Below are positions 4,752 through 36,323 of a stretch of DNA of 37,607 nucleotides, piece after piece; within the stretch, counting starts at the first letter, position 1, and each line of letters starts with the position of its first letter. The stretch lies in the IMG/VR virus record IMGVR_UViG_2636415906_000005. One strand, 5' to 3'. The translations under genes were made by a program, and so were the position numbers. The notes beneath the pieces were generated by a model that had not been told where the DNA came from, made no database searches, and was given only the letters and a program-made list of their open reading frames with translations. The stretch is from a virus. Lineage: Duplodnaviria; Heunggongvirae; Uroviricota; Caudoviricetes.

Positions 4752-4809
4752 AAAAACGGCGGCAGAGCAGTCACGGAGTAAAACTGATACCGCCAAACGT
4801 CACCAGAAA
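4752..4809 (-). ncRNA. dicF: DicF small regulatory RNA (antisense regulator of ftsZ and other mRNAs) with intrinsic terminator
   Basis: Reverse complement of 4752-4809 reads TTTCTGGTGACGTTTGGCGGTATCAGTTTTACTCCGTGACTGCTCTGCCGCCGTTTTTA, matching the DicF sequence as I recall it, with a terminal GC hairpin plus U-run; immediately upstream of dicB as in Qin. Ends are approximate. Confidence 0.85.
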
Positions 4810-8798: not shown

Positions 8799-9821
8799 AT
8801 GAGCAGGATGATAATTGATACAAATATTCTTTACTCACTAGTTGGTCTGTCGACAAACCAAAAAATAATTAACTCCCCTATAGATCAATTCAAATTATCC
8901 ATTACGACACCATCACTCATAGAAGTGATCTCTAAATATTGCAATGACTTAGGGGCTGTAAAAAAATGCATTAGCCCAATCATAAACGGAAATATTGAAC
9001 TAATTAGCATTGGTCATACTCCAATCTCAAATGAATTTCTTTATAGGTTGCATTTTTCAGACAAAATAGACGAAGTAAAAGATATTATTGATAATGTTAG
9101 AGCACTAAAAATATCTAGAGAGGCTGAGTTTTATAGGTTCATACTCATACTGGTTGTCTCTGGTTTGTTTGAGGTTATTAGAGAAGATGGATACAAGTTT
9201 GATAACGATGTACAAAATCAAAGTCAACTTAGTCTTGTGCAGACTCTACTTGAATCTAATATGGAATTAATTTTAGACTTCTTTAAAGATGAGTTGCGGA
9301 ATGGATATATTAATGGAAATGAGCAGCAATCAGCTTTGAAAGCTTTTGAAACCATGCTTATCGGACTCCTACATGCTTTTCATGTCAACTATCATATGAT
9401 TAAAACTGACACAGTTAACATTTCCGGAAGCCAAGACAGACTCAAAAATCTGTATGATAGTATAAAAAATGATAATTTTGATAAAAAGTTTAAAAAATAT
9501 ATGGAGAATCCAATATCCCTTGCCTGCAAAAAAAAACACGAATCAGTAGTTGATAACTACCTGAAAGAAATGGAGGAGGGGATTTCTGGCGCTCGTGGGC
9601 TTACTAAGAATTCGTTGAGCTTTCTAATGAGCAAGGTTGAGGATGCATATAAAAATGGTCGTAAATTACGAAAAAATGACATATTTGACTTTCTAATAGT
9701 TATTTCTCTAAATATGCCAGACACTTTGATTTTAACACTTGATAAAGGTTTTTTAAAAGACCTTAAAGATCTTCACCCTAACAGCTATAAAAAGTGTCTG
9801 GATTTCGGTTTTGTAAATTAA
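8799..9821 (+). CDS. Hypothetical 340-aa protein in an AT-rich cargo island; possible split PIN-like nuclease (candidate defense/accessory gene)
   Basis: ATG at 8799 with AAGGAG 7 nt upstream. The N-terminus MSRMIIDTNILYSLVG resembles the first PIN-domain strand with its conserved Asp; the C-terminus NDIFDFLIVISLNMPDTLILTLDKGF resembles the C-terminal PIN acidic motifs. Coding sequence is visibly AT-rich compared with the flanking phage genes (GC not computed). Confidence 0.65.
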   Translation: MSRMIIDTNILYSLVGLSTNQKIINSPIDQFKLSITTPSLIEVISKYCNDLGAVKKCISPIINGNIELISIGHTPISNEFLYRLHFSDKIDEVKDIIDNVRALKISREAEFYRFILILVVSGLFEVIREDGYKFDNDVQNQSQLSLVQTLLESNMELILDFFKDELRNGYINGNEQQSALKAFETMLIGLLHAFHVNYHMIKTDTVNISGSQDRLKNLYDSIKNDNFDKKFKKYMENPISLACKKKHESVVDNYLKEMEEGISGARGLTKNSLSFLMSKVEDAYKNGRKLRKNDIFDFLIVISLNMPDTLILTLDKGFLKDLKDLHPNSYKKCLDFGFVN

Positions 9822-10679: not shown

Positions 10680-10892
10680 GATTTCACATTGGCGAGGTAA
10701 CGGTAGTTAAGTAGAATGGCTGCGGGTGCTTGAGGCTATCTGCCTCGGGCATGAACACCAACGGCAGATAGAGAAAAGCCCCAGTTAACATTACGCGTCC
10801 TGCAAGACGCTTAACATTAATCTGAGGCCAATTTCATGCTAGACACATGTAGGTTAGCCTCTTACGTGCCGAAAGGCAAGGAGAAGCAGGCT
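10680..10892 (+). promoter_or_regulatory. hok mRNA leader with overlapping mok-like frame (from 10836) and expected Sok-antisense target region
   Basis: Upstream of hokD there is an overlapping ORF starting at 10836 (MLDTCRLASYVPKGKEKQA...), the mok-like arrangement, and a 9-bp inverted repeat CTATCTGCC...GGCAGATAG typical of structured hok leaders. The Sok promoter itself was not pinpointed. Confidence 0.4.
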
Positions 10893-11048
10893 ATGAAGCA
10901 GCAAAAGGCGATGTTAATCGCCCTGATCGTCATCTGTTTAACCGTCATAGTGACGGCACTGGTAACGAGGAAAGACCTCTGCGAGGTACGAATCCGAACC
11001 GGGCAGACGGAGGTCGCTGTCTTCACAGCTTACGAACCTGAGGAGTAA
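10893..11048 (+). CDS. hokD: Hok/Gef family type I toxin HokD (RelF)
   Basis: 51-aa product MKQQKAMLIALIVICLTVIVTALVTRKDLCEVRIRTGQTEVAVFTAYEPEE, which I recognise as HokD/RelF; followed by a fold-back repeat CGAGGGAgaaaTCCCTCG and an intrinsic terminator. Confidence 0.9.
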   Translation: MKQQKAMLIALIVICLTVIVTALVTRKDLCEVRIRTGQTEVAVFTAYEPEE

Positions 11049-12924: not shown

Positions 12925-13299
12925 ATGCTCATAGATTTGGTTTTACCTTACCCGCCGACGGTGAACACTTACTGGCGACGCCGTGGCAGCACATATTTTA
13001 TCTCGGAGGAGGGAAAGCGTTATCGCCGGGCTGTGGCGCTTATTGTTCGCCAGCAGCGGCTGAAATTAAGCCTGTCCGGAAGGCTGGCGATAAAGGTGAT
13101 TGCAGAGCCACCGGATAAGCGTCGTCGCGACCTGGACAATATCCTGAAAGCACCGCTGGATGCGCTGACGCATGCGGGAGTGTTAATGGACGATGAGCAG
13201 TTTGATGAAATCAATATCGTTCGTGGTCAGCCAGTATCTGGTGGACGTCTGGGGGTGAAGATTTACCCCATAATGCATGAAGAGCAGGTCAAAAAATGA
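12925..13299 (+). CDS. rusA: Crossover junction endodeoxyribonuclease RusA (Holliday junction resolvase)
   Basis: 124-aa product with the RusA-family blocks PPTVNTYWRRRG and DKRRRDLDNILKAPLDALTHAGVLMDD; AAGAGG ribosome-binding site 6 nt before the ATG; standard NinR-region position before Q. Confidence 0.85.
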   Translation: MLIDLVLPYPPTVNTYWRRRGSTYFISEEGKRYRRAVALIVRQQRLKLSLSGRLAIKVIAEPPDKRRRDLDNILKAPLDALTHAGVLMDDEQFDEINIVRGQPVSGGRLGVKIYPIMHEEQVKK

Positions 13300-14117
13300 A
13301 ACTGGAAGATTTACCGAAATACTACTCCCCAAAATCCCCTTGCCTGACCGATGCATCGGCCTCAACGTCAAAAGATGCGCTGAGTATCACTGATGTGATG
13401 GCCGCGCAGGGCATGACACAGAATCGGGCTGAGATGGGGTTTTCTGCGTTCCTGGGGAAAATGGGCATCAGTATGAATGACAGGGCGCGGGCAACAGAAT
13501 TACTGGCAGATTATGCACTCAGTCGGTGCGATCGTGTGGCGGCGTTGAGAAAACTTCCGGTAGAAATAAAACCGTTAGTGATGCGCATTATGGCTTCGTA
13601 CGCTTTTGAGGATTATGCCCGCAGCGCAGCGAGTAAAAAGCAGTGCCCTTGTTGCTATGGGGAAAAATTTATTGAAAGCGTAGTTTTTACAAACAAGGTC
13701 CAGTATCCGGATGGTAAGCCGCCGGTATGGGCAAAGTGTACGAAAGGTGTGTATCCGTCTTACTGGGAAGAATGGAAAAAAGTCAGGGAGGTGGTAAAAG
13801 TTGCCTGTCCGGAGTGTGGCGGAAAGGGTGAGGTTTCCACCGTCTGTAAGGATTGCCGTGGGCGTGGTGTCGCCATTCACCGTGAAGAGTCGGTAAAACG
13901 TGGTATGCCTGTTATCAGAGACTGCCAGCGTTGTGGTGGTCGTGGCTATGAAAGACTACCATCAACGGAGGCATTTAATGCTATATGCGAGGTGACAAAC
14001 CAGATAACACGCGCGTCATGGGAAAAAACAGTTAAGAAATTCTATGATGCGCTGGTGACCCGGTTTGATATTGAAGAAGCATGGGCTGAGCGGCAGTTAA
14101 AAAAGGTAACTAGGTAA
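13296..14117 (+). CDS. Putative late-gene antiterminator (Q-like) with DnaJ-type zinc-finger repeats
   Basis: 273-aa ORF whose start overlaps the rusA stop; contains repeated CxxCxGxG motifs (CPECGGKG, CKDCRGRG, CQRCGGRG); positioned immediately before a tR'-like terminator, tRNA genes and the lysis cassette. Confidence 0.6.
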   Translation: MKLEDLPKYYSPKSPCLTDASASTSKDALSITDVMAAQGMTQNRAEMGFSAFLGKMGISMNDRARATELLADYALSRCDRVAALRKLPVEIKPLVMRIMASYAFEDYARSAASKKQCPCCYGEKFIESVVFTNKVQYPDGKPPVWAKCTKGVYPSYWEEWKKVREVVKVACPECGGKGEVSTVCKDCRGRGVAIHREESVKRGMPVIRDCQRCGGRGYERLPSTEAFNAICEVTNQITRASWEKTVKKFYDALVTRFDIEEAWAERQLKKVTR

Positions 14118-14199
14118 CAAGGTTGATTTTTCCGGAATCTGTGGTAAATTCGTCATAACGATGGGCTTTTTATACCTGACGTTAGAAGAGTTTCTACAA

Positions 14200-14222
14200 C
14201 CCGCCACCGAGCGGGTTTTTTA
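14200..14222 (+). terminator. Rho-independent terminator downstream of Q (tR'-like)
   Basis: CCCGC-caccga-GCGGG hairpin followed by TTTTTTATT, about 85 bp after the Q-like stop. Confidence 0.55.
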
Positions 14223-14260
14223 TTGCGGAATTAATTACGGACCGTTATTATTCTGCTCCC

Positions 14261-14336
14261 GGTCCTTTAGCTCAGTGGTGAGAGCGAGCGACTCATAATC
14301 GCCAGGTCGCTGGTTCAAATCCAGCAAGGGCCACCA
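14261..14336 (+). tRNA. tRNA with anticodon CAU, most similar to tRNA-Ile2 (lysidine, ileX/ileZ-like); tRNA-Met not excluded
   Basis: 76-nt cloverleaf folded by hand: acceptor GGTCCTT/AAGGGCC, D-arm TAGCTCAGTGGTGAGAGC, anticodon loop CTCATAA, T-arm GCTGG-TTCAAAT-CCAGC, 3' CCA; resembles my memory of E. coli tRNA-Ile2. Confidence 0.85.
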
Positions 14337-14398
14337 TCACAAACCGCCATGAGCTTATCAGGAAGAGCAGACGACACGATAACAGGGTTGTTGGTGGC

Positions 14399-14412
14399 GG
14401 GGGGGGGGGGGG
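14399..14412. repeat. Homopolymeric G tract (about 14 G) between the two tRNA genes
   Basis: GGCGGGGGGGGGGGGGGCGGG read directly from 14397-14416. Confidence 0.9.
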
Positions 14413-14446
14413 CGGGTCCCCGATGGCGGTCCATTATCGGTATTCA

Positions 14447-14523
14447 GCGTTGTTAGCTCAGCCGGACAGAGCAATTGCCTTCTAAGCAATCGGTCACTGG
14501 TTCGAATCCAGTACAGCGCGCCA
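14447..14523 (+). tRNA. tRNA-Arg (anticodon UCU)
   Basis: 77-nt cloverleaf: acceptor GCGTTGT/ACAGCGC, anticodon stem ATTGC/GCAAT with loop CTTCTAA, T-arm ACTGG-TTCGAAT-CCAGT, 3' GCCA. Confidence 0.85.
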
Positions 14524-14633
14524 TATTCATTCTTCCAGATTCCTTCCGGCAGAGCCTTATACTGGAATATACCTGGCTCAGGATATTGTTGAAAATATTA
14601 TATGTTTGTCAAAAATAAAAGTTCTGTTAAGTA

Positions 14634-14987
14634 TTGATTGAGTGTTTGTTATACGGTCTAATGGTTTTTTCAGCATTAAATATTTATCATTCATATGGTG
14701 TGGGTAGAGTGAATATTGATGAGGCGTCGGGGTGTTTCATCCTTAGGCAGCGTATTGATATAGTCAATGCAGCACGAGCAAAGGCCTTCAGCCGTTTGAC
14801 AGTTTTGTTCTGTGCTCCTGATCGTCTTTCGGGAAGAGACGTTATTATTCTGAATAGTGATGCTATACAGAGGGTTTGCGATGAGTTCATGGTTGCTAAT
14901 TCAGAATTATTTGCTCTTGTTCAGGAGTACAACAGAATAGCCAGGACCTGTGGTATGGATGAACTTCGGATTACTCATCTGGGGTAG
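14634..14987 (+). CDS. Hypothetical protein downstream of the tRNA genes (start uncertain)
   Basis: 117-aa track ORF with no strong ribosome-binding site identified; sits in the cargo position between Q/tRNAs and the lysis genes. Confidence 0.35.
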   Translation: MIECLLYGLMVFSALNIYHSYGVGRVNIDEASGCFILRQRIDIVNAARAKAFSRLTVLFCAPDRLSGRDVIILNSDAIQRVCDEFMVANSELFALVQEYNRIARTCGMDELRITHLG

Positions 14988-15520
14988 ATACATATCTGGA
15001 TTATCACCTGTTACGGTAAAAAGTGATTGCTTACTGTTTTTGTGAATGGCATTGCAGCAGCCGGATAATGTCAGTGCTGGCTGACGGTGTGCTGGTGGCG
15101 GGTGTGGTGGTTGTTGCTTTCCCGTTGCTGAAAAAGAAAACGCCAGACTGTTAGCCGGGTATCAGTTAGCGGGAGAAATTTTTAAATACTTCACAATTCA
15201 GGCGGTTGACTGTTCTCTGGTTTGCGGGGAGTTTGTTAAAAGAAACTGGCATGGTGAATCCCCCTGTGCGGAGGGGCAATCAGCGAGTAGGTATATGGGA
15301 TAATCGCGGATTCAGGTGCTGGTACTGAATTCACCGGGAGGCACCCGGCACCATGCACTTCAATAGATTCTCTCCACATTATGGATATTCTTTCAGAATA
15401 TCCCACGCAGACTTTGTGTAAATGTTAACAAATGTGCGTTTTATTTGATCTGATTCGCTGTTTGAGCGTCCAAAACAACGGTATATATAATCCTTTACTA
15501 TATGACATATGTGAGGAAAA

Positions 15521-15949
15521 ATGGGTTTTCGTAGCGCATCAATTCTTACGTTGATTATTAGTGGGATTATTATCGGGTGCACTGATGCTGTATCGACAAA
15601 TTATCATGACCGTACATCATATTACTCCGATAAAGCAATAGAGACACAGTATGTGAGTTTATCTGAACGTACTTCTGATGTTAGTGAGGATATCCGTCTG
15701 TATGCCCATCAAATCAAGAGCGCCATCGAAAAACAGTTCGGGGATGCGAGTAAGTATTCAGGAAAAGAGTGTACACTGAGAATGCATATGGCCCCGAATG
15801 GCCTTCTACTGGAGGTTAAAAGAGAAAGTGGAGACCTCGATTTATGTCGTGAAGCGATGAATGCGATAAAGAATGCTGATATACCTGCCCCCCCTTCGCC
15901 GGAAGTATATAAAGTATTTCAAAATGGGGTGCTGGATTTTAAACCCTGA
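15521..15949 (+). CDS. Lipoprotein with TolA C-terminal (domain III)-like fold
   Basis: Signal peptide with lipobox-like IIGC; the C-terminal 85 aa (YAHQIKSAIEKQFGDASKYSGKECTLRMHMAPNGLLLEVKRESGDLDLCREAMNAIKNADIPAPPSPEVYKVFQNGVLDFKP) aligns closely with my recollection of E. coli TolA domain III; GAGGA ribosome-binding site before the ATG. Confidence 0.75.
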   Translation: MGFRSASILTLIISGIIIGCTDAVSTNYHDRTSYYSDKAIETQYVSLSERTSDVSEDIRLYAHQIKSAIEKQFGDASKYSGKECTLRMHMAPNGLLLEVKRESGDLDLCREAMNAIKNADIPAPPSPEVYKVFQNGVLDFKP

Positions 15950-16099: not shown

Positions 16100-16495
16100 G
16101 TGGGATTAAAGAAAATCGTTATGTTGACTTTTTGGGTCAGTTTTGTTGCGGGATGCACACCTTTACACCCTTCAGATTGCCACAAAACTACTGCTACAGG
16201 TAGTTGCAGTTCAGGACGCTGGGATGATCAGGATGAATGGGGGGCGCAAGCGCGGGGAATCAGAGCTGCAATTAATGCCAAACTTGATGAGCCGCATAAC
16301 TGGAAAGGGAAAAAATGCAGGTTGCATATGGAATTCTCTCAGGATGGCACGGCGTTAAAAATATCTACCAGTAACGGTGATAAAGCCTATTGCGAAGCGA
16401 TAAAGTCCGCAGCTCATAAAGCCAAATTTCCGGCCTTCAACAATCCGGAAGTCTACAGAGATTTTCAGAAATCTGGCTTTGACATGCGAGGTTAG
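16100..16495 (+). CDS. Paralogous lipoprotein with divergent TolA domain III-like region
   Basis: GTG start after GAGGAG; signal peptide with lipobox VAGC; conserved skeleton GKKCRLHMEF..DG.ALKI....GD.AYCEAI.SAA.KAKFPAF..PEVYRDFQ shared with the upstream paralog. Confidence 0.7.
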   Translation: MGLKKIVMLTFWVSFVAGCTPLHPSDCHKTTATGSCSSGRWDDQDEWGAQARGIRAAINAKLDEPHNWKGKKCRLHMEFSQDGTALKISTSNGDKAYCEAIKSAAHKAKFPAFNNPEVYRDFQKSGFDMRG

Positions 16496-18898: not shown

Positions 18899-19591
18899 TC
18901 AAATCTTATCTAACTCATTATAGGCTTCGATAATAAAAATTCTGATTTTAATAAGGCATGATTCAATGAAAGGAATTACTTCATGGTCATTCCCATGGAA
19001 TCTTATTTTTTTCTCTTCGGTAATGACTATGTTTAAAGGTACACCATTACCACTTCTTTGTAATTTCCCATTTTCGAAAGTAAAGTCTTCTAATTTTTTG
19101 CCATTGATGTGGTTGTTTTTAAAGAGAATTTTTGCTGAGCTTCCTGCTGTGATTAAACCAAAACCATCTACGCTCACACTTAGGTCTTTAACAGAACTCT
19201 CTTCTCTTAAGGGGATTGGTTGTCTGTGCTTTACTTCATTAGTGAGATTACACATCATTTCCAACCAAGATTCGCCAGTGTGATAATCCTGTATAGAAGT
19301 AAAAATTTTATATAATGGAGAAGATGATGGTGGGTTTATTTTTAGCGTCTTTGAGAAAAATTTATCAATAAACTCTTTTTTTCCGTAAGGGAAATATATT
19401 TTGGGGCGCTCATCATTACTGCGTGGAGAAATATATTTATCATAGGTATCATTAGCGAGATACTCTAAGGAACTTCGTAAGTTTTCCAAAATAGCTTTGA
19501 CTTTTACAGGCTTGATATGCTGTGTCTGTCTCATTATGTCAAGACTTTCTTCAACTTCTTGCAATAAGTCCAACGAGCCTTCTCTAGACAT
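18899..19591 (-). CDS. Hypothetical 230-aa protein, AT-rich minus-strand cargo gene in the bor-equivalent position (candidate accessory/defense gene)
   Basis: Long ORF on the strand opposite all neighbouring late genes, with AAGGAG about 9 nt upstream of the ATG on the minus strand and visibly low GC; no recognised family. Confidence 0.65.
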   Translation of the reverse strand: MSREGSLDLLQEVEESLDIMRQTQHIKPVKVKAILENLRSSLEYLANDTYDKYISPRSNDERPKIYFPYGKKEFIDKFFSKTLKINPPSSSPLYKIFTSIQDYHTGESWLEMMCNLTNEVKHRQPIPLREESSVKDLSVSVDGFGLITAGSSAKILFKNNHINGKKLEDFTFENGKLQRSGNGVPLNIVITEEKKIRFHGNDHEVIPFIESCLIKIRIFIIEAYNELDKI

Positions 19592-24489: not shown

Positions 24490-25668
24490 ATGCAGGCTGG
24501 TCACCAGAGTGACGCGGATATTTATATTTATGACGAGATTGGTTTCTGGGGTGTTACAGCGAAGCAGTTTATCAGTGATCTGAATGCACTGGGCGATATC
24601 ACCCACATTAATCTCCATATCAATTCACCGGGTGGCGATGTCTTTGAAGGCATCGCCATTTTTAATGCACTGAAAACACATGGTGCGTCCATTACCGTTT
24701 ATGTCGACGGTGTGGCGGCGTCAATGGCGTCGGTCATTGCGATGGTGGGAAACCCGGTCATTATGCCGGAAAACACCTTCATGATGATTCATAAACCATT
24801 TGGCTTTACGGGCGGTGATGCGGAGGACATGCGCACCTATGCCGACCTGCTCGATAAGGTTGAGGCGGTTCTGTTACCCGCTTATGCACAGAAAACCGGG
24901 AAAACCACCGATGAAATTGCTGCCATGCTGGCGGATGAGACCTGGATGTCCGGTGCCGAATGTCTGGCACATGGATTTGCTGATCAGGTGACGCCAGCCG
25001 TTAAGGCAATGGCATGTATTCAGTCAAAACGTACAGAGGAATTTAAAAAGATGCCGGAATCCATTCGAAACATGATTACTCCGCCACGCAACAGTGCTCC
25101 ACGCGTACAGGATGATGAACCTGCAGCCTCCCGGACGCCAGTGCAGGCAGCAGCACCCGTGGTGGATGAAAACAGTATCCGTGCGCAGGTACTGGCAGAG
25201 CAAAAAGCGCGTGTAAACGGTATTAATGATCTGTTTGCCATGTTTGGCGGGCGTTATCAGACGCTGCAGGCTCAGTGTCTTGCCGATCCTGAATGTTCGC
25301 TGGAGCAGGCCCGCGAAAAGCTGTTGAACGAGATGGGGCGCGAGTCCACGCCATCCAATAAAAATACACCGGCTCATATTTATGCCGGTAATCTGGAGGC
25401 CACAGGGCTGTATCAGGTGCCGTTGTCAGCGGCGCAGCCGGGCGATGTGCTGCTGTGCTGTTTTGGTTCATCGGTGCCGAATCATGCCGCCATTTACTGT
25501 GGCGACGGCGGGCTGCTGCACCATATTCCTGAACAACTGAGCAAACGAGAGAGGTATACCGACAAATGGCAGCGACGCACACACTCCCTCTGGCGTCACC
25601 GGGCATGGCGCGCATCTGCCTTTACGGGGATTTACAACGATTTGGCCGCCGCATCGATCTGCGTGTGA
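24490..25668 (+). pseudogene. Chimeric ORF: head maturation protease (gpC-like, ClpP/S49 fold) N-terminal part fused in frame to a tail assembly protein K-like (NlpC/P60-type) C-terminal fragment; scar of a head/tail gene deletion
   Basis: The N-terminal 200 aa carry ClpP/S49-like motifs (INSPGGDVFEGIAIFNALK ... VAASMASVIAMVG ... MIHKP). The C-terminal 90 aa (QPGDVLLCCFGSSVPNHAAIYCGDGGLLHHIPEQ...) look like the NlpC/P60-type end of lambda K. It is followed directly by gpI and gpJ, with no scaffold, capsid, tail tube or tape-measure genes in between. Confidence 0.6.
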
Positions 25669-26207
25669 AAACGGGGGCCGAAGCCATCCGGGCGCTGGCC
25701 ATGCAGATCCCGGCGTTTCGTCAGAAGCTGAGCGACGGCTGGTATCAGGTACGCATTGCCGGGCGTGATACAGGTGAAACGGAATTATCAGCCCGTCTTA
25801 ATGAACCGCTGGCAAATGGTGCTGTGATCCATATCGTGCCGCGTCTGGCGGGAGCCAAAAGTGGCGGTGTGTTTCAGGCTGTGCTGGGGGCGGCTGTTAT
25901 GGCGGTTGCTATATGGATGCCGGGGGTAGGAATTATGGCGAGTAATCTGCTGTTTTCTCTCGGTGCCAGTATGACGCTTGGCGGTGTTGCACAGATGCTG
26001 GCCCCTAAACCCAAAACCCCCCGCACACAGACAACGGATAACGGCAAACAGAACACCTATTTTTCTTCACTGGATAACATGGTTGCCCAGGGCAATGTTC
26101 TGCCTGTTCTGTACGGTGAAATGCGCGTGGGGTCACGCGTGGTTTCTCAGGAGATCAGCACGGCAGACGAAGGGGATGGTGGTCAGGTTGTGGTGATTGG
26201 TCGCTGA
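25566..26207 (+). CDS. Tail assembly protein I (lambda gpI-like)
   Basis: 213-aa product with the C-terminal block TTDNGKQNTYFSSLDNMVAQGNVLPVLYGEMRVGSRVVSQEISTADEGDGGQVVVIGR, recognised as gpI; precedes J. Confidence 0.85.
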   Translation: MAATHTLPLASPGMARICLYGDLQRFGRRIDLRVKTGAEAIRALAMQIPAFRQKLSDGWYQVRIAGRDTGETELSARLNEPLANGAVIHIVPRLAGAKSGGVFQAVLGAAVMAVAIWMPGVGIMASNLLFSLGASMTLGGVAQMLAPKPKTPRTQTTDNGKQNTYFSSLDNMVAQGNVLPVLYGEMRVGSRVVSQEISTADEGDGGQVVVIGR

Positions 26208-26228
26208 TGCAAAATGTTTTATGTGAAA

Positions 26229-26247
26229 CCGCCTGCGGGCGGTTTTG
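26229..26247 (+). terminator. Hairpin plus T-run between I and J (weak terminator-like element)
   Basis: CCGCC-tgcg-GGCGG followed by TTTTG. Confidence 0.3.
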
Positions 26248-26267
26248 TCGTTTATGGAGCGTGAGGA

Positions 26268-29200
26268 ATGGGTAAAGGAAGCAGTAAGGGGCATACCCCG
26301 CGCGAAGCGAAGGACAACCTGAAGTCCACGCAGTTGCTGAGTGTGATTGATGCCATCAGTGAAGGGCCGATTGAAGGTCCGATGGATGGATTAAAAAGCG
26401 TGCTGCTGAACAGTACGCCGGTGCTGGACAGTGATGGGAATACCAACATCGCCGGTGTCACGGTGGTGTTCCGGGCTGGTGAGCAGGAGCAGACTCCGCC
26501 GGAGGGATTTGAATCCTCCGGCTCCGAGACGGTGTTGGGTACGGAAGTGAAATACGACACGCCGATCACCCGCGCCATCACGTCGGCAAACATCGACCGA
26601 CTGCGCTTTACCTTCGGTGTGCAGGCACTGGTGGAAACCACCTCAAAGGGGGACCGGAATCCGTCGGAAGTTCGCCTGCTGGTTCAGATACAGCGTAATG
26701 GTGGCTGGGTGACGGAAAAAGACATCACCATTAAGGGCAAAACCACCTCGCAGTATCTGGCCTCGGTGGTGGTGGATAACCTGCCGCCGCGCCCGTTTAA
26801 TATCCGGATGCGCAGAATGACGCCGGACAGCACCACAGACCAGCTGCAGAACAAAACGCTCTGGTCGTCATACACCGAAATCATCGATGTGAAACAGTGC
26901 TACCCGAACACGGCACTGGTCGGCGTGCAGGTGGACTCGGAACAGTTCGGCAGCCAGCAGGTGAGCCGTAATTATCATCTTCGCGGGCGCATTCTGCAGG
27001 TGCCGTCGAACTATAACCCGCAGACGCGGCAATACAGCGGTATCTGGGACGGAACGTTTAAGCCAGCATACAGCAACAACATGGCCTGGTGTCTGTGGGA
27101 TATGCTGACCCATCCGCGCTACGGCATGGGGAAGCGTCTCGGTGCGGCGGATGTGGACAAATGGGCGCTGTATGTCATCGGCCAGAATTGCGACCAGTCG
27201 GTGCCGGATGGCTTTGGTGGCACGGAGCCGCGCATCACCTGTAATGCCTACCTGACCACACAGCGCAAGGCGTGGGATGTTCTCAGTGATTTCTGCTCGG
27301 CGATGCGCTGTATGCCGGTATGGAACGGGCAGACGCTGACGTTCGTGCAGGACCGACCGTCGGATAAGGTGTGGACCTATAACCGCAGTAATGTGGTGAT
27401 GCCGGATGATGGCGCGCCGTTCCGCTACAGCTTCAGTGCCCTGAAGGACCGTCATAATGCCGTTGAGGTGAACTGGATTGACCCGGATAACGGCTGGGAG
27501 ACGGCGACAGAGCTTGTTGAAGATACGCAGGCCATTCTCCGTTACGGTCGTAACGTCACGAAGATGGATGCCTTTGGCTGTACCAGCCGGGGGCAGGCGC
27601 ACCGCGCCGGGCTGTGGCTGATTAAAACGGAACTACTGGAAACGCAGACCGTGGACTTCAGCGTGGGTGCGGAAGGGCTTCGCCATGTGCCGGGCGATGT
27701 CATTGAAATCTGCGATGATGACTATGCGGGGATCAGCACCGGCGGGCGCGTGCTGGCGGTGAACAGCCAGACCCGGACGCTGACGCTCGACCGTGAAATC
27801 ACGCTGCCATCCTCCGGTACCACGCTGATAAGCCTGGTTGACGGAAGTGGCAATCCGGTCAGCGTGGAGGTCCAGTCCGTCACCGACGGCGTGAAGGTAA
27901 AAGTGAGCCGTGTTCCTGACGGCGTTGCCGGATACAGCGTATGGGGGCTGAAGCTGCCGACGCTGCGCCAGCGCCTGTTCCGCTGCGTGAGTATCCGTGA
28001 GAACGACGACGGCACGTATGCCATCACCGCCGTGCAGCATGTACCGGAAAAAGAAGCCATCGTGGATAACGGGGCGCACTTTGACGGCGACCAGAGCGGC
28101 ACGGTGAATGGTGTCACGCCGCCAGCAGTGCAGCACCTGACTGCCGAAGTCACCGCAGACAGCGGGGAGTATCAGGTACTGGCCCGCTGGGACACGCCGA
28201 AGGTGGTGAAGGGCGTGAGTTTCATGCTTCGCCTGACCGTGGCAGCGGATGACGGCAGTGAGCGGCTGGTCAGCACGGCCCGGACGACGGAAACCACTTA
28301 CCGCTTCACACAACTGGCTCTGGGGAACTACAGGCTGACAGTCCGGGCAGTAAATGCGTGGGGGCAGCAGGGCGATCCGGCGTCGGTATCGTTCCGGATT
28401 GCCGCACCGGCAGCGCCGTCGCGGATTGAGCTGACGCCGGGCTATTTTCAGATAACCGCCACGCCGCATCTTGCGGTTTATGATCCGACGGTACAGTTTG
28501 AGTTCTGGTTCTCGGAAAAGCGGATTGCGGATATCAGGCAGGTTGAAACCACAGCACGCTATCTTGGCACGGCGCTGTACTGGATAGCCGCCAGTATCAA
28601 TATCAGGCCGGGCCATAATTATTATTTTTACGTTCGCAGTGTGAACACCGTTGGCAAATCGGCATTCGTGGAGGCTGTTGGTCAGCCGAGTGATGACGCA
28701 TCCGGCTATCTGGATTTTTTCAAAGGCGAGATAGGGAAAACCCATCTGGCTCAGGAGCTGTGGACGCAGATTGATAACGGTCAGCTTGCGCCTGACCTGG
28801 CTGAAATCAGGACATCCATTACGGATGTCAGCAATGAAATCACACAGACCGTCAATAAGAAACTGGAAGACCAGAGTGCAGCGATCCAGCAGATACAGAA
28901 GGTTCAGGTTGATACAAATAATAATCTGAACAGCATGTGGGCTGTGAAGCTGCAGCAGATGCAGGACGGACGCCTTTATATCGCGGGTATCGGTGCCGGT
29001 ATTGAGAACACCCCCGACGGCATGCAGAGTCAGGTGCTGCTGGCGGCAGACAGGATTGCGATGATTAATCCTGCAAATGGCAACACAAAACCGATGTTTG
29101 TTGGTCAGGGTGATCAGATATTCATGAATGAAGTGTTCCTGAAATATCTGACGGCTCCCACCATTACCAGCGGCGGTAATCCTCCTGCATTTTCCCTGAC

Positions 29201-29747
29201 ACCGGACGGAAAGCTGACCGCTAAAAATGCAGATATCAGTGGCAGTGTGAATGCGAACTCCGGGACGCTCAACAACGTTACGATAAATGAGAACTGTCAG
29301 ATTAAAGGGAAACTGTCAGCCAACCAGATTGAAGGCGATATTGTCAAAACAGTGGGTAAGGCTTTCCCGCGGGACTCCCGGGCACCGGAGCGGTGGCCAT
29401 CAGGGACCATTACCGTCAGGATTTATGACGATCAGCCGTTTGACCGGCAGATTGTTATTCCGGCGGTGGCATTCAGCGGTGCTAAACATGAGAGAGAGCA
29501 TACTGATATTTACTCCTCATGCCGCCTGATAGTGAAGAAAAATGGTGCTGAAATTTATAACCGTACCGCGCTGGATAATACGCTGATTTACAGTGGTGTT
29601 ATTGATATGCCTGCTGGTCACGGCCACATGACGCTGGAGTTTTCGGTGTCAGCATGGCTGGTAAATGACTGGTATCCCACAGCAAGTATCAGCGATTTGC
29701 TGGTTGTGGTGATGAAGAAAGCCACCGCAGGCATCAGTATCAGCTGA
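26268..29747 (+). CDS. Tail tip / host specificity protein J (central tail fiber)
   Basis: 1159-aa product starting [38 protein letters not shown], recognised as lambda J-like over most of its length; the C-terminal receptor-binding region differs from what I recall of lambda. Confidence 0.95.
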
Positions 29748-29766
29748 ATTTTATAACCCATATACG

Positions 29767-29790
29767 GGCGCCAGAAATGGCGCCTTTTTT
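29767..29790 (+). terminator. Rho-independent terminator after J
   Basis: GGCGCC-agaaat-GGCGCC hairpin followed by TTTTTT. Confidence 0.6.
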
Positions 29791-29814
29791 ATTGCAGAAA
29801 AGCGAGAGGTAATT

Positions 29815-30414
29815 ATGCGTAAAGTTTGTGCAGCCATTTTGTCCGCAGCCATCTGTCTGGCCGTATCCGGTGCGCCTGCATGGGCGTCTGAGCAGCAGGC
29901 CACACTGAGCGCAGGGTATCTTCATGCCCGTACGAACGCTCCCGGCAGCGATAATCTGAACGGGATTAACGTGAAATACCGTTATGAGTTTACGGACACG
30001 CTGGGGCTGATTACGTCATTCAGTTATGCCAACGCTGAAGATGAGCAAAAAACGCATTACAGCGATACCCGCTGGCATGAGGATTCCGTGCGTAATCGCT
30101 GGTTCAGCGTGATGGCGGGGCCGTCTGTGCGCGTGAATGAATGGTTCAGCGCGTATGCGATGGCGGGTATGGCTTACAGCCGTGTGTCGACTTTCTCCGG
30201 GGATTATATCCGCGTAACTGACAACAAGGGGAAAACGCACGATGTGCTGACCGGAAGTGATGACGGTCGCCACAGCAACACGTCTCTGGCGTGGGGAGCT
30301 GGCGTGCAGTTTAACCCGACCGAATCCGTGGCCGTTGATGTCGCTTATGAAGGCTCCGGCAGTGGTGACTGGCGCACTGACGGGTTCATCGTGGGTGTTG
30401 GTTATAAATTCTGA
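29815..30414 (+). CDS. lom: Lom outer membrane beta-barrel protein (Ail/Lom family)
   Basis: 199-aa product with signal peptide MRKVCAAILSAAICLAVSGAPAWA and a C-terminal beta-strand ending GVGYKF; the lambda lom position between J and stf. Confidence 0.9.
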   Translation: MRKVCAAILSAAICLAVSGAPAWASEQQATLSAGYLHARTNAPGSDNLNGINVKYRYEFTDTLGLITSFSYANAEDEQKTHYSDTRWHEDSVRNRWFSVMAGPSVRVNEWFSAYAMAGMAYSRVSTFSGDYIRVTDNKGKTHDVLTGSDDGRHSNTSLAWGAGVQFNPTESVAVDVAYEGSGSGDWRTDGFIVGVGYKF

Positions 30415-30441
30415 TTAGCCAGGTAACACAGTGTTATGACA

Positions 30442-30467
30442 GCCCGCCGGTTCAGGCGGGCTTTTTT
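30442..30467 (+). terminator. Rho-independent terminator after lom
   Basis: GCCCGCC-ggttca-GGCGGGC hairpin followed by TTTTTTG. Confidence 0.65.
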
Positions 30468-30472
30468 GTGGG

Positions 30473-33400
30473 GTGAATATGGCAGTAAAGATTTCAGGTG
30501 TACTGAAAGACGGCACAGGAAAACCGGTACAGAACTGCACAATCCAGCTGAAAGCAAAACGTAACAGTACCACGGTGGTGGTGAACACGCTGGCTTCAGA
30601 AAATCCGGATGAAGCCGGGCGTTACAGTATGGACGTTGAGTACGGTCAGTACAGCGTTATTCTGTTGGTGGAAGGATTCCCGCCGTCACATGCCGGGACC
30701 ATCACAGTGTATGAAGATTCCCGACCCGGTACGCTGAATGATTTTCTCGGTGCCATGACGGAGGATGATGCCCGTCCGGAGGCACTGCGCCGTTTTGAGC
30801 TGATGGTGGAAGAGGTGGCGCGTAACGCGTCCGTGGTGGCACAGAACACGGCAGCCGCAAAGAAGTCAGCCAGTGATGCCAGCACATCTGCCAGTGAGGC
30901 GGCAACCCGTGCGACTGATGCTGCAGGCTCAGCACGCGCAGCCAGCACGTCAGCCGGACAGGCCGCGTCGTCGGCTCAGTCAGCATCTTCCAGCGCAGGA
31001 ACGGCATCAACAAAGGCCACTGAAGCATCGAAAAGTGCTGCTGCTGCAGAGTCCTCAAAAAGCGCGGCAGCTACCAGTGCCAGTGCCGCGAAAACGTCAG
31101 AAACGAATGCTGCAGCGTCACAACAATCAGCAGCCACTTCTGCATCCACCGCGACCACGAAAGCGTCAGAAGCTGCCACCTCAGCCCGGGATGCGGCGGC
31201 TTCAAAAGAGGCGGCAAAATCATCAGAAACGAACGCATCCTCGAGCGCCAGTAGCGCAGCTTCCTCGGCAACGGCGACAGCAAATTCTGCGAAGGCGGCC
31301 AAAACGTCCGAGACGAACGCCAGGTCTTCTGAAACGGCAGCGGGACAGAGTGCCTCAGCTGCGGCAGGCTCAAAAACAGCGGCTGCGTCGTCTGCCAGCG
31401 CCGCGTCAACAAGTGCCGGGCAGGCCTCAGCCAGTGCCACCGCCGCCGGAAAATCGGCAGAAAGCGCCGCATCATCCGCTTCAACAGCCACAACGAAGGC
31501 TGGCGAAGCCACTGAGCAGGCCAGCGCAGCAGCGAGGTCAGCTTCCGCAGCGAAGACATCCGAAACGAACGCGAAAGCGTCGGAAACCCGTGCAGAATCC
31601 TCAAAAACGGCTGCTGCATCGTCCGCCAGTTCGGCGGCGTCATCGGCATCATCTGCGTCTGCTTCAAAAGATGAGGCGAGCAGACAGGCATCAGCAGCGA
31701 AAGGCAGCGCCACGACGGCATCCACGAAGGCGACAGAGGCAGCTGGCAGTGCGACGGCGGCAGCTCAGAGCAAAAGTACGGCGGAATCCGCGGCAACGCG
31801 CGCTGAGACAGCGGCAAAACGGGCAGAGGATATTGCATCCGCCGTGGCGCTTGAGGATGCGAGCACGACGAAAAAGGGGATAGTACAGCTCAGCAGTGCG
31901 ACCAACAGCACTTCCGAGTCACTGGCGGCAACGCCAAAAGCCGTTAAGGCCGCGTATGACCTGGCTAACGGGAAATACACCGCACAGGATGCAACGACAG
32001 CACAGAAAGGGATAATCCAGCTAAGCAGCGCGACCAACAGCACGTCTGAAACGCTGGCGGCAACGCCAAAGGCAGTAAAATCAGCCTATGACAATGCAGA
32101 GAAACGTCTGCAGAAAGACCAGAACGGCGCTGATATACCCGATAAGGGACGCTTCCTGAACAACATTAACGCGGTCAGTAAAACAGACTTTGCTGATAAG
32201 CGTGGTATGCGTTATGTGCGGGTTAACGCTCCTGCAGGTGCAACATCTGGAAAATATTACCCTGTTGTTGTTATGCGTTCTGCTGGCTCAGTAAGCGAAC
32301 TGGCATCAAGGGTCATTATCACCACGGCAACGCGAACCGCAGGAGATCCGATGAATAACTGCGAGTTTAACGGATTTGTTATGCCTGGTGGCTGGACTGA
32401 CAGGGGGCGTTATGCTTATGGAATGTTCTGGCAATATCAAAACAATGAACGAGCCATCCACTCAATAATGATGAGTAATAAGGGCGATGATTTGCGCTCT
32501 GTGTTCTATGTTGATGGCGCTGCTTTCCCTGTTTTTGCGTTTATCGAAGATGGCCTGTCAATATCCGCACCTGGTGCTGATCTCGTTGTTAATGATACGA
32601 CCTATAAGTTTGGGGCAACAAATCCAGCGACTGAATGTATCGCGGCGGACGTTATCCTTGATTTTAAGAGTGGGCGTGGTTTTTATGAGTCTCATTCGTT
32701 AATCGTTAACGATAACTTGTCGTGCAAAAAACTTTTTGCCACAGACGAAATTGTAGCGCGTGGTGGTAATCAGATTCGAATGATAGGTGGGGAGTATGGG
32801 GCATTATGGCGTAATGATGGCGCTAAAACTTACCTGCTGCTTACCAATCAAGGTGATGTTTATGGTGGATGGAATACATTAAGACCGTTTGCTATTGATA
32901 ACGCAACCGGCGAACTGGTTATTGGAACCAAGCTGTCTGCAAGTCTGAACGGTAACGCATTGACAGCAACAAAGCTGCAAACGCCAAGACTGGTTTCTGG
33001 GGTTGAGTTTGATGGTTCCAAAGATATTACTTTAACCGCCGCGCATGTGGCTGCTTTTGCCAGAAGGGCAACGGATACATATGCCGATGCGGATGGTGGC
33101 GTTCCCTGGAATGCCGAATCAGGCGCTTACAATGTCACCCGCTCTGGCGACAGCTATATTCTGGTTAACTTCTATACCGGAGTCGGAAGTTGCCGGACCT
33201 TGCAGATGAAGGCGCATTACAGAAATGGTGGTCTGTTCTACCGTTCTTCAAGAGACGGTTATGGTTTTGAGGAAGACTGGGCAGAAGTTTATACCTCGAA
33301 AAATCTTCCACCAGAAAGCTACCCAGTCGGCGCACCAATCCCGTGGCCATCAGATACCGTTCCGTCTGGTTATGCCCTGATGCAGGGGCAGACTTTTGAC

Positions 33401-34009
33401 AAATCTGCTTACCCGAAACTTGCGGCCGCTTATCCGTCAGGCGTGATCCCTGATATGCGTGGCTGGACGATTAAGGGCAAGCCCGCCAGTGGTCGTGCCG
33501 TATTGTCTCAGGAACAGGACGGCATTAAATCGCACACCCACAGCGCCAGCGTATCCAGTACGGATTTGGGTACGAAAACCACATCATCGTTTGATTACGG
33601 CACTAAATCCACGAATAACACTGGTGCGCATACTCATAGTTTAAGTGGCAGCACGAATGCAGCTGGTAATCACAGCCATAGAGATGGCCGTCGATTTAAC
33701 CCCAGTGTTTTTAAAGATACTTATCAATATGGTTATACAAGCTCAGGTCAAAATACCTGGGGTGTACAAGGTTCAGTAGGTATGTCTACGGGGTGGTTAG
33801 CTAATACCAGTACAGATGGTAATCATAGCCACTCACTGTCCGGCACAGCAGCATCTGCAGGTGCACACGCGCATACTGTCGGTATTGGTGCTCATACGCA
33901 CTCCGTTGCGATTGGTTCACATGGACACACCATCACCGTTAACGCTGCTGGTAATGCGGAAAACACCGTCAAAAACATCGCATTTAACTATATTGTGAGG
34001 CTTGCATAA
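30473..34009 (+). CDS. stf: Side tail fiber protein (Stf-like) with long Ala/Ser-rich repeat shaft and His-rich C-terminal domain
   Basis: 1178-aa product; N-terminus [30 protein letters not shown] is tail-fiber-like; a low-complexity A/S/T/K/E shaft with recurring AAKTSETNA motifs; C-terminal GAHTHS/NHSHS repeats typical of lambda/T4 gp37-type fiber tips. Confidence 0.9.
30830..31890 (+). repeat. Degenerate tandem coding repeats (Ala/Ser-rich, recurring AAKTSETNA / SETNA(K/R)SSE units) within stf
   Basis: Repeated motif visible in the translation and the DNA; explains the several long artefactual ORFs in other frames and on the minus strand of this interval. Confidence 0.6.
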
Positions 34010-34590
34010 TGGCATTCAGAATGAGTGAACAACCACGGACCATAAAAATTTATAATCTGCTGGTCGGAACTAATGAATTTATTGGTGAAGGTGACGCATA
34101 TATTCCGCCTCATACAGGTCTGCCAGCAAACAGTACCGATATTGCACCACCAGATATTCCTGCTGGCTTTGTGGCTGTTTTCAACAGTGATGAGGCATCG
34201 TGGCATCTCGTTGAAGACCATCGGGGTAAAACGGTTTATGACGTGGCTTCCGGCGACGCGTTATTTATTTCTGAACTCGGCTCATTACCGGAAAATGTCA
34301 CCTGGTTATCCCCGGAAGGGGAGTTTCAGAAGTGGAACGGCACAGCCTGGGTGAAAGATGCAGAAGCAGAAAAACTATTCCGGATCCGGGAGGCGGAAGA
34401 AACAAAAAACAGCCTGATGCAGGCAGCGAATGAGCATATTGCGCCACTTCAGGATGCTGTAGATCTGGAAATCGCAACGGAGGAAGAAAACTCGTTGCTG
34501 GAAGCCTGGAAAAAGTATCGGGTGTTGCTGAACCGTGTTAATACAACAACTGCACCGGATATTGAATGGCCAGTAGCACCTATAGGGTAA
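34009..34590 (+). CDS. tfa: Tail fiber assembly protein (Tfa)
   Basis: 193-aa product; start overlaps the stf stop; C-terminal motif [31 protein letters not shown] is characteristic of Tfa chaperones. Confidence 0.85.
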
Positions 34591-35180
34591 ATTCGTAATG
34601 ATTACCTAAATACGTTATTCTTTTGTTCAAAAAGTGATTTTGCTATAGGTAGGGAGTATGTTCTTGGATTAAGAATAAAAAATCGCCATGAAAGAGCTTC
34701 ATGGCGAGTACATAAACGTACAAAATGTGATGAAAGTAGAGTGGCGTAAGCCACTATATTAAGATATGACAATAGCGAACAAAAGTAAATAACATTTTAT
34801 GGACGTTTAATTGTTAATTATAAAAACTAGAGTGCCCGATATTGTTTATCTTGCTTTAAAATAATGTACTCAAACCAAATTTTTGAGCTAAAAGCTCAAA
34901 TAATATAAATGCAATGATAATGTTTAATAAGACAATTAGCTTGCTTTGTATTTTCATTTCGGAATACTGTTAAGTAACTTTGATGACCCTAACAATAGAT
35001 CGGAATTTTCTTAGAGTCAATGGTCACTGTTTTTGTTTGCAAAGCAAATGTTTTGGTGGTTATAAGTTTTCCTAATATAGTCACCTATGCAACTTGTTCC
35101 GTGTGGAGATTAAAGGTTAAAATTTAATGCGAAGATGGAATTATAATATATTTTTTTATAATTAATTTAACCTTAACATC

Positions 35181-35277
35181 GTTGCTGGCGGCATGGAAGA
35201 AATATCGGGTCTTACTGATATCGTGTTGGCACTTCCTTAGTGCGGTTATCGAATGGCCAGCTGTACCTGTGGGGTAA
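35181..35277 (+). pseudogene. Remnant of an alternative tfa 3' end (degenerate duplicate)
   Basis: DNA about 70% similar by eye to tfa 34495-34590; reads ..[20 protein letters not shown] with an internal stop. Confidence 0.5.
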
Positions 35278-35949
35278 AAACTTTATATGGATGCTATTTT
35301 TATAATAGCTGGTAAAAACTGGCCGAACTGAAATTCACTGTTGATAAAAAAGATGTGTTTGAGTGTATGTCATTGTTTTCTTAATGGAATCCACTAGAAT
35401 GCAGCGAATTTAAGAAGGTGGGTTTTTATTGGAATATAAACTACAATAATGCTCAACTCGTTCGTAGAATTGTTTTTTCTTATTTCTTGGAATGCTAACC
35501 ATTATATGCATTATGGGGGCGATACTTCCTGATAATTTACATGATGCATACATTGAAGCAATAAATTCAATATCATTGTCATCAAAGTTAAAGCTTTCTC
35601 CGTCCATTTCAATTCCTTATGTGTTTGGCACAACTGATGCTGTATCCCATGAGAATTTATGCAAGTTGTTATGTTTGATTTGATATTGCAATGATAATTG
35701 TAGCTAATTGTTTTCAATTGAGTGAAAGTTTATTTCGAGTGATTAAGTCGAAAAAAAAGATTTCTCACGGTTAGTAAGCATATTAGGTCAGTATTCAGAT
35801 ATGAATGGTATTAATGACTAAATTTTCAATCATATATGGATTTTTATGCTGATGAAGATGTTTTATTTGGCGATTCGTCAAGCATCTTCACTTAAGTAAT
35901 CGTATATTTTAAGAGTGCAAAAGAGAAAGGGACAACGTTGCTCGCACTC

Positions 35950-36035
35950 TGGATTAAATATAGGGTGTTGTTAAACTGCGTTGATACATAATTGTACCGG
36001 ATATTGAGTGGTCTGAAGTCCCAGTCATTAAGTAA
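35950..36035 (+). pseudogene. Second degenerate tfa 3'-end remnant
   Basis: CTGGATTAAATATAGGGTGTTGTTAAACTGCGTTGATACATAATTGTACCGGATATTGAGTGG resembles the tfa C-terminal coding sequence; the motif CTTAAGTAATCG also recurs near 35890. Confidence 0.45.
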
Positions 36036-36323
36036 TCGTTTCGTGATATGCCGCAGAAACGTTGTATGCAATAACGTTCTGCGGTTGGCTGATGCACTTT
36101 CGAGAGTGTATTGAATAATTTCAAGCCGTTATTGTTTTTACGCGTAACACCATGAAAAGACTGCTTATCTGTTGGGGTGTTTTTTGGGGCATATATGGGA
36201 CAGAAATAGGCCACAGATAGATAGTAAGATCGAACTCAGGATGCTTTTGAAAAAATGTAACTATCTGAAAAAACCTAGAAAGCGCCAAGGAAACCACAGA
36301 ATGAGAAAAAACATCTGTGAATT

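Follow-up and report, generated by a model that had tools for sequence, protein, structure and literature searches.

Genes for tRNAs downstream of the late antiterminator gene Q are common in lambdoid phages, among them SfI, Sf6, ST64T and P21, where they have been proposed to supplement the decoding of rare codons (PMC3636060). The tRNAs of these four phages occupy the same position as those described here but are of other kinds (Asn GUU, Thr UGU), and neither a pseudogene nor a homopolymer is reported with them. The closest described system is the ileZ-argN-argO cassette of Stx-converting phages. In Stx2a_1447 (AP012536) the block is annotated as ileZ, argN and argO followed by stx2A/B, and ARAGORN calls three tRNAs in it, with anticodons CAT, TCG and TCT; the Stx2e phage phiP27 has ileZ and argO only, with stx2e downstream (the gene content of both phages is taken from their GenBank annotations). 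Our own literature search on ileZ, argN and argO found nothing relevant, and in the literature searched we found no description of a series of decaying argN genes or of a hypervariable G run.

We analysed a 37,607-nt stretch of DNA (the window; features lie on its plus strand unless stated otherwise) that carries a cassette of this known ileZ-(argN)-argO family in its two-tRNA form. Positions 14221-14538 match 289 phage records, mostly Stx2-converting, at 85-89% identity, in agreement with the sequence-only reading of this DNA, which had recognized the tRNA position of Stx-converting lambdoid phages. Homology and gene order hold across the whole block, but three functional tRNAs are not present, the middle gene having lost U8, the anticodon loop and T54/T55. 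Taken as a whole, the locus is very probably the rare-codon cassette of a lambda-like prophage, with two functional tRNAs, a dead argN between them, and within that relic a neutral run of G grown by slippage. The cassette itself is already known; what we add is modest and descriptive, namely a clear stepwise decay series of the middle tRNA and the hypervariable run that came out of it.

The comparison with individual relatives is instructive at the level of single positions. Over 318 nt the window is 85-86% identical to Stx2a_1447, with the same gene order and the same 40-nt leader containing TTGnnn-17-TATTAT; ileZ differs only by C3 to T and argO only by A69 to G. In the window, however, argN is a pseudogene and an open reading frame follows argO in place of stx2A/B, a terminator-like hairpin found after argO in Stx2a_1447 is absent, and the cassette lies directly after Q and tR' rather than after a DNA methylase gene. 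Phage phiP27 (89% identity) shares with the window a replaced anticodon arm in the middle element, but has an intact T arm (GCGGGGTTCGAGTCC) and no G run. Phage mEp460, 96.7% identical over the whole interval, and the common allele of E. coli prophages with a run of five G have the same Q gene, terminator, tRNAs and argN relic, and mEp460 departs from the window in having G5 rather than G14 in its relic, in keeping U8, and in having C3 in ileZ. Among 5426 complete E. coli genomes, 3070 have a match to part of the interval, in 1064 the match covers most of it, and RefSeq annotates both tRNAs in every E. coli genome inspected.

The prophage of the window is a lambda-like one of E. coli that lies between rspB and ydfJ, which we take to be the site of Qin in K-12. 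Its first 25,391 positions are 99.93% identical to the rspB-adjoining prophage of E. coli APEC E18005, its end lies in ydfJ, and the prophage carries dicB, DicF, hokD/sok and rem. Compared with APEC E18005 the prophage lacks about 8.8 kb, a stretch of head and tail genes reaching from the capsid gene as far as tail gene K. Because of this loss no particles are possible and a role of the tRNAs in virion production is moot here, so that any current benefit from them must fall to the host or to such prophage genes as remain.

ARAGORN calls exactly two tRNA genes across the 37.6-kb window, both on the plus strand: a tRNA of ileZ/ileX type with anticodon CAU (CAT in the gene) at 14261-14336 and a tRNA-Arg of argO type with anticodon UCU (TCT) at 14447-14523, each with CCA encoded. 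The Rfam tRNA model matches both full-length, end to end, with 69.4 bits for the CAU gene and 68.0 for the UCU gene against a gathering score of 29 (E ~1e-13). The phage-borne tRNA-Ile2(CAU) and tRNA-Arg(UCU) pair proposed from the sequence is thus present, and neither cloverleaf is rejected by either predictor. ARAGORN names the CAU tRNA "Met", as it does every CAT anticodon, and on that label the gene could be taken for an elongator tRNA-Met, a reading we consider extremely unlikely. With K-12 ileX the tRNA shares about 88% identity, and the elongator and initiator Met tRNAs are both distant from it; RefSeq labels it tRNA-Ile in 40 of 40 E. coli genomes among the matches listed; G1-C72 and C11-G24 exclude an initiator, whose 1:72 mismatch and A11-U24 pair are absent; and the acceptor pairs C4-G69 and C5-G68 that E. 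coli TilS needs (PMC1635315) are present (GGTCCTT...AAGGGCC). On these grounds (ileX identity, TilS pairs, lack of initiator features, RefSeq label) we identify it as tRNA-Ile2, which should read AUA once TilS has converted C34 to lysidine.

Both genes are held under structural constraint, since ileZ is nearly invariant (identical in 115 of 121 loci) and variation in argO among loci consists of wobble or compensatory stem changes only, the T-stem variant C51G/G65C seen in argO relatives being of the compensatory kind. The ileZ of the window has an A27-C43 mismatch at the top of the anticodon stem, which is also present in the commonest phage ileZ allele, and differs from that allele by one transition that yields U3-G70. 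The argO of the window agrees with the commonest argO allele at 76 of 77 positions, with G69 for A69 giving U4-G69, so that in each gene a single transition puts a wobble pair in place of a Watson-Crick pair of the acceptor stem. All 21 pairs of the argO cloverleaf are standard, and A20 and C35, which are identity elements for ArgRS, are present in the sequence. In anticodons and decoding roles the two tRNAs are the same as the host's ileX/ileY (Ile2, CAU) and argU (Arg, UCU), and the CAU tRNA has its TilS determinants in common with ileX; unlike the host genes they are prophage-borne, clustered, and tied to phage late-control signals.

Between the two genes lies a 110-nt spacer, recognizable as a decayed argN from its alignment with intact argN genes and from 61 distinct spacer variants; the earlier suggestion that it might be the remnant of a third tRNA is borne out by this comparison. 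Still present in the pseudogene (tRNA-Arg UCG, 14344-14433) are both strands of the acceptor stem (CCGCCAT on the 5' side and ATGGCGG on the 3' side), the D arm GCTT/ATCAGGAA/GAGC, CCCCG as the 3' strand of the T stem, and the discriminator with CCA (TCCA). The last 29 nt ahead of argO are identical in the window and in Stx2a_1447. Three lesions separate it from an intact gene. The anticodon arm has been exchanged for unrelated sequence whose hairpin fold has a loop of 3 nt, the T loop is destroyed, and U8 is changed to G, this last change being confined to alleles with a long G run.

Other loci preserve these lesions singly or in other combinations. The replaced anticodon arm with the T arm still intact occurs in phiP27 and in one further sampled locus (L036), while L067 has an intact argN anticodon arm and reads GGGG-GG-CGGGT where intact genes read GGGG-TT-CGGGT; from this sequence it follows that T54/T55 changed to G/G and fused with the G's of the T stem, giving a run of six. 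Intact and broken anticodon arms each occur both with intact and with broken T arms, and the existence of these four combinations implies that recombination or recurrent mutation has taken place. In the lineage of the window argN probably lost function stepwise, with the anticodon arm replaced, then T54/T55 changed to G/G, and then U8 to G, although the order is tentative, and L067 shows that the lesions occur in other combinations too. Among 118 sampled loci, 76 have three tRNAs and 33 have ileZ and argO only, at least three of the latter (L066, L109 and L121) representing independent decays; in others the middle position has been retargeted, to a UUU anticodon in two loci and to a second UCU in one. 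The middle tRNA has therefore been repeatedly lost or retargeted while selection keeps ileZ and argO almost invariant. CGN codons are already covered by host tRNAs, and tRNAs for AUA and AGA/AGG are scarce; the UCG tRNA may thus be largely redundant with the host's CGN-reading tRNAs, a plausible reason for its loss.

The acceptor-stem complementarity, D arm and CCA that persist in the relic, together with a centroid fold in which acceptor stem, D arm and a hairpin are still seen, could also be read as signs of a non-canonical tRNA or tRNA-like RNA that still functions, for instance by providing a signal for processing or by decoying anticodon nucleases. We give this only a slim chance. U8, T54 and T55 are gone and the loop of the anticodon hairpin is down to 3 nt; ARAGORN makes no call in 14344-14433, and a permissive Rfam search of 14100-14700 (E up to 10) gives no tRNA-like signal in the spacer; folded alone, the spacer does not exceed shuffled sequence in stability (z = -0.36); and the middle gene has decayed independently in the three other lineages named above.

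The T54/T55 site of this pseudogene is now a run of 14 G. The homopolymer, read directly at 14399-14412 in the context GGTGGC-G14-CGGGTCCCC, replaces the 5' strand of the T stem as well as T54/T55, and is the tract that had been reported between the two tRNAs. No other run of eight or more G or C occurs in the 37.6-kb window, and from the base composition about 2e-4 runs of 14 G would be expected. We collected 168 alleles of the relic lineage from IMG/VR, metagenomes, GTDB, six E. coli genomes, two named loci and the window. The run is G4 to G7 in 150 of them (four G in 8 alleles, five in 123, six in 18, seven in 1) and G9 to G16 in the remaining 18 (nine in 4, ten in 3, eleven in 1, twelve in 3, thirteen in 1, and fourteen, fifteen and sixteen in 2 each). 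Long runs are over-represented in the six E. coli genomes because these were picked for differing match lengths; in the 158 alleles obtained from IMG/VR and metagenomes by pattern scan, 10 (6%) have nine G or more. The U8G marker is present in every allele of G9 or longer, and all of these belong to one haplotype.

Homopolymers are error-prone, and two details might suggest that the run is an artefact of assembly or sequencing, not present at such length or at all: an extra G ahead of the run in the window (GGC where the others have GC) is unique among the 168 alleles, and one locus, L260, has an interrupted run, G15-A-G. We regard this as improbable. Runs of G9 to G16 occur at the same site in 17 further sampled loci, all of the U8G haplotype, which come from complete genomes, IMG/VR isolate genomes and a metagenome; an artefact would not follow a linked SNP. 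That the run length tracks U8G across independent assemblies is our reason for taking the tract as real, although lengths in individual assemblies, including the G14 of the window, may contain homopolymer sequencing error, and the unique GGC may be one such error.

Replication slippage is expected once a run exceeds about 8-9 nt, and the alleles behave as slippage would have it, in line with the earlier description of the tract as slippage-prone: length differs among near-identical loci. G10, G11, G12, G15 and G16 are found at loci with no substitution relative to the window over about 990 flanking nt, and the best 40 E. coli matches to a 461-nt query span 457-463 nt at identities of at least 99.1%, consistent with length variation. 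The tract is hypermutable, its length changing far faster than point substitutions accumulate. Under the account we favour, the T-loop change would have joined with the G's of the T stem to give a run of five or six G, one haplotype would then have passed the slippage-prone length, and its run would now be drifting between G9 and G16, with the window at G14. Two T to G changes in a T loop can, by this route, seed a hypermutable homopolymer in E. coli. A practical warning attaches to it as well, in that the tract varies between otherwise identical assemblies and its length should not be relied on in phylogeny or typing.

In Neisseria, Haemophilus and Campylobacter, genes are turned on and off by poly-G/C contingency loci, and these likewise combine a long G run with many length alleles in otherwise identical sequences. 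Length polymorphism in otherwise identical genomes is a feature that the tract shares with them; a position from which length would switch a gene is one that it lacks. Their tracts lie in reading frames or promoter spacers, whereas that of the window is part of a non-coding relic flanked by the two tRNAs and falls outside reading frames and promoter spacers alike. The only open reading frame across it is antisense, 43 codons long (14358-14489), and runs over the relic and the start of argO, and a simple promoter scan finds no promoter hexamers flanking the tract.

A rival idea is that the expanded run (G9-G16) is a phase-variable dial, heritable and quickly reversible, that tunes the maturation or supply of argO, or read-through to cargo and lysis genes, by way of a G-quadruplex (in DNA or RNA) or of polymerase stalling or slippage. 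Were it true, an E. coli prophage would have gained a contingency locus out of a dead tRNA. The lengths from 9 to 16 all occur on one otherwise identical haplotype, the tract belongs to a spacer that is transcribed ahead of argO and the late genes, and the stretch GGGGGGGGGGGGGGCGGG at 14399-14416 (G14 followed by CGGG), on the sense strand, is the sole canonical G-quadruplex motif in the window (four runs of at least three G with loops of 1-7 nt). We nevertheless judge the idea very unlikely to be right. Besides lying outside any coding frame or promoter spacer, the run originated within a tRNA pseudogene, most alleles (150 of 168) carry a short run of G4-G7, and no phenotype is linked to length. 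When the whole precursor was folded with runs of G4 to G20, in a model that ignores quadruplexes, there was no sign of interference with the cloverleaves: the argO cloverleaf probability stayed flat at 0.53-0.57, and that of ileZ, far from being impaired, rose slightly. An effect of the tract on expression would make it a rare E. coli contingency locus, but nothing found in this analysis points there and we found no evidence for function of the run. Most likely, then, the tract is a neutral by-product of pseudogene decay and not a regulator.

Upstream, the cassette adjoins lambda-type late-control elements: a Q-family protein, a promoter with a pause-type element, and an intrinsic terminator. 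The Q-type late antiterminator gene (13296..14117, 273 aa) matches Pfam PF03589 (Antiterm, 2e-54), is named 'anti-termination protein Q-like' in PHROG and 'antitermination protein' in RefSeq, and encodes a protein that shares 31% identity with lambda Q (E 5e-39). Lambda pR' can be aligned in register with the 100 nt that follow the gene (GGTAAATTCGTCATAACGATGGG in the window, GGTAAATTTGACTCAACGATGGG in lambda), which places a pR'-like late promoter at 14123..14162, with TTGATT at 14123-28, TGn-TAAATT at 14142-50 and a pause-type AACGAT at 14157-62; for these elements we use the lambda names, which we take to be established. In lambda the -10-like element downstream of the pR' start is the sigma-dependent pause where Q loads. 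A terminator scan finds, about 40-65 nt downstream of this promoter, an intrinsic terminator at 14198..14223 with a 7-bp GC-rich stem and a 6-nt loop, consisting of the hairpin AACCCGCCACCGAGCGGGTT at 14198-14217 and a following T run. A transcript from about 14157 to the terminator is predicted to be about 65 nt long and corresponds to lambda 6S RNA or to the StxS of Stx phages (PMC7547250). Given that likeness, the "tR'-like terminator" of the sequence-only reading is a fair description, and after induction we would expect Q-dependent read-through of it. Weak Rfam hits to Trp_leader, isrK and Plastid-ycf2 in the region all fall below threshold and represent either this hairpin or the antisense strand of a tRNA, the Trp_leader match reflecting the hairpin.

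Transcription of the tRNAs probably need not wait for induction. A candidate promoter, TTGCGG-17-TATTAT at 14223..14251, ends 9 nt before ileZ within the 40-nt cassette leader. The 29 distinct leaders from 118 loci, whose upstream contexts are of four or more unrelated kinds, all have an unchanged TATTAT at 9-10 nt from the tRNA and retain TTG 16-17 nt upstream of TATTAT, with the sequence between the two varying. A transcription start site published for the tRNAs of phage Sp5 fits this element. From the conserved leader element and the Sp5 start site together we conclude that the cassette probably has its own promoter, probably active in the lysogen. Simple promoter scanning omits both this promoter and pR', their -35 hexamers being weak (pR' matches at only 8 of 12 hexamer positions), and we identified the former by conservation and the latter by comparison with lambda. 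The pair does lie after a tR'-like terminator, as described earlier, but the tRNAs are probably not a late product only. Expression would thus come from two sources, a conserved sigma70-like promoter just upstream that is active in the lysogen and, after induction, Q-modified polymerase reading through tR'; host enzymes would cut the precursor, with RNase P making the 5' ends and endo- and exonucleases the 3' ends.

Codon usage fits a role of the two tRNAs in the supply of decoding capacity. AUA, AGA and AGG together make up 22.6 per 1000 codons in all open reading frames of the window and 4.8 per 1000 in a 50-kb core region of K-12 processed with the same ORF caller, a 4.7-fold difference (Fisher p ~8e-36), although the K-12 baseline may understate the genome average because the region includes highly expressed genes. 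The sequence-only reading had proposed a check for enrichment in the late genes: use of the three codons is 30.5 per 1000 in the early genes and 36.9 in the segment from after Q to lysis, so that it peaks in early and accessory and in post-Q and lysis genes, while the morphogenesis genes are lowest at 12.6. Genes of the prophage that are rich in rare codons include int and those at 8799-9821, 14661-14987 and 18899-19591. With use several-fold higher than in the host region, the tRNAs add decoding capacity for the prophage; tRNA-Ile2, lysidine-modified, would read AUA and tRNA-Arg(UCU) would read AGA and AGG, providing extra supply for prophage genes. The placing of tRNAs for AUA and AGA/AGG by late control and by horizontally acquired AT-rich cargo is textbook prophage biology.

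On its other side the cassette borders a variable cargo slot lying ahead of the lysis genes, so that it sits between this slot and the Q/pR'/tR' late control. In a sample of 113 IMG/VR loci, for which only the ileZ end and the argO start served as anchors, five large clusters and three singletons are seen downstream of argO and six clusters on the upstream side; the stx cluster accounts for 13 of the 113 loci, and the type found in the window is the commonest, with 38. From this pattern it follows that the cassette is a conserved module beside a variable cargo slot and that a toxin-free slot is the norm; the toxin-free, two-tRNA state is common, not special. The absence of toxin genes noted earlier holds up to tblastn, which finds no stx homologue in the window, only chance matches with E >1.

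In the slot held by stx in Stx phages the window has a putative coding sequence of 108 codons (14661..14987; phrog_2873, 3e-57). Searches of Pfam, NCBIfam, PADLOC and PDB sequences gave no informative match for it, and its homologues are near-identical proteins found in E. coli and Shigella only. It is intact and ungapped in 112 of 126 matches in the loci retrieved, its variable sites are distributed 5:6:7 over the three codon positions, and 9 of its 108 codons are AUA, AGA or AGG.

The middle tRNA of the cassette, of which the window keeps only the argN relic (14344-14433), is labile among relatives. Its anticodon is UUU in two IMG/VR loci (L013 and L052), while a second UCU stands at the same position in a third (L025). 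Three further IMG/VR loci (L066, L109 and L121) represent independent decays with mutations in the acceptor stem and T loop, and another, L067, carries a G6 T loop beside an intact anticodon arm. Directly 5' of the G run, the window reads GGC at 14396-14398, against GC in each of the 167 other alleles; the extra G reflects either a 1-nt insertion private to the window or a miscalled base at the homopolymer's edge. Both flanking tRNA genes carry an acceptor-stem transition that yields a wobble pair: U3-G70 in ileZ (14263), an allele present in 2 of 121 sampled loci with the window itself counted, and U4-G69 in argO (14516), present in 19 of the 121.

Upstream of the cassette, a short transcript of ~65 nt (14157-14223, + strand) is predicted to run from pR' to tR', the equivalent of 6S RNA in lambda and of StxS sRNA in Stx phages; its sole Rfam match is a sub-threshold hit to isrK at 16 bits. 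On the other side of the tRNAs, the Stx2a phage locus (L001) has a terminator-like hairpin and T run at its positions 1806-1825, 14 nt past argO and just upstream of stx2A, whereas the window has no equivalent. The stx slot of Stx phages is occupied in the window by a 108-codon ORF (14661-14987, + strand) assigned to PHROG 2873, of unknown function, in which AUA, AGA and AGG account for 9 of the 108 codons. This ORF is intact in 112 of its 126 matches among the fetched loci, its homologues were found in E. coli and Shigella only, and most RefSeq genomes leave it without annotation. Its variable sites show no third-position excess (5:6:7 by codon position). It is followed by a 43-codon ORF annotated in RefSeq as a DUF3927 family protein (15023-15154, +), which precedes an STnc100 sRNA (15220-15410, +; Rfam, 114 bits); a 2026 preprint ties STnc100/PasD to neighbourhoods of Q (PF03589). 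Rfam matches above gathering score elsewhere in the window are sok antitoxin RNA adjoining hokD (10724-10898, +), DicF (4757-4808, -) and IS009 (34352-34550, +).

Two small ORFs with a TolA C-terminal domain lie downstream of the tRNAs and ahead of the lysis genes, at 15521-15949 (+; Pfam PF06519 at 3e-23) and 16121-16495 (+). Both match NCBIfam TolA models and may be phage-borne TolA mimics. Use of AUA, AGA and AGG is very high in two AT-rich ORFs, 8799-9821 (+; GC 32%, 59 per 1000) and 18899-19591 (-; GC 34%, 57 per 1000). Both look like foreign accessory (moron) genes; a PADLOC search returned no match for either.

Two segments of the window, 1-25391 and 25389-37607, match the prophage of E. 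coli strain APEC E18005 ~8.8 kb apart, and their 3-nt overlap (25389-25391) marks a deletion junction. What is missing relative to APEC E18005 is most of a gene fusing prohead protease and capsid, together with the head-tail, tail tube and tape measure genes, M, L and part of K. Loss of these head and tail genes leaves the prophage defective.
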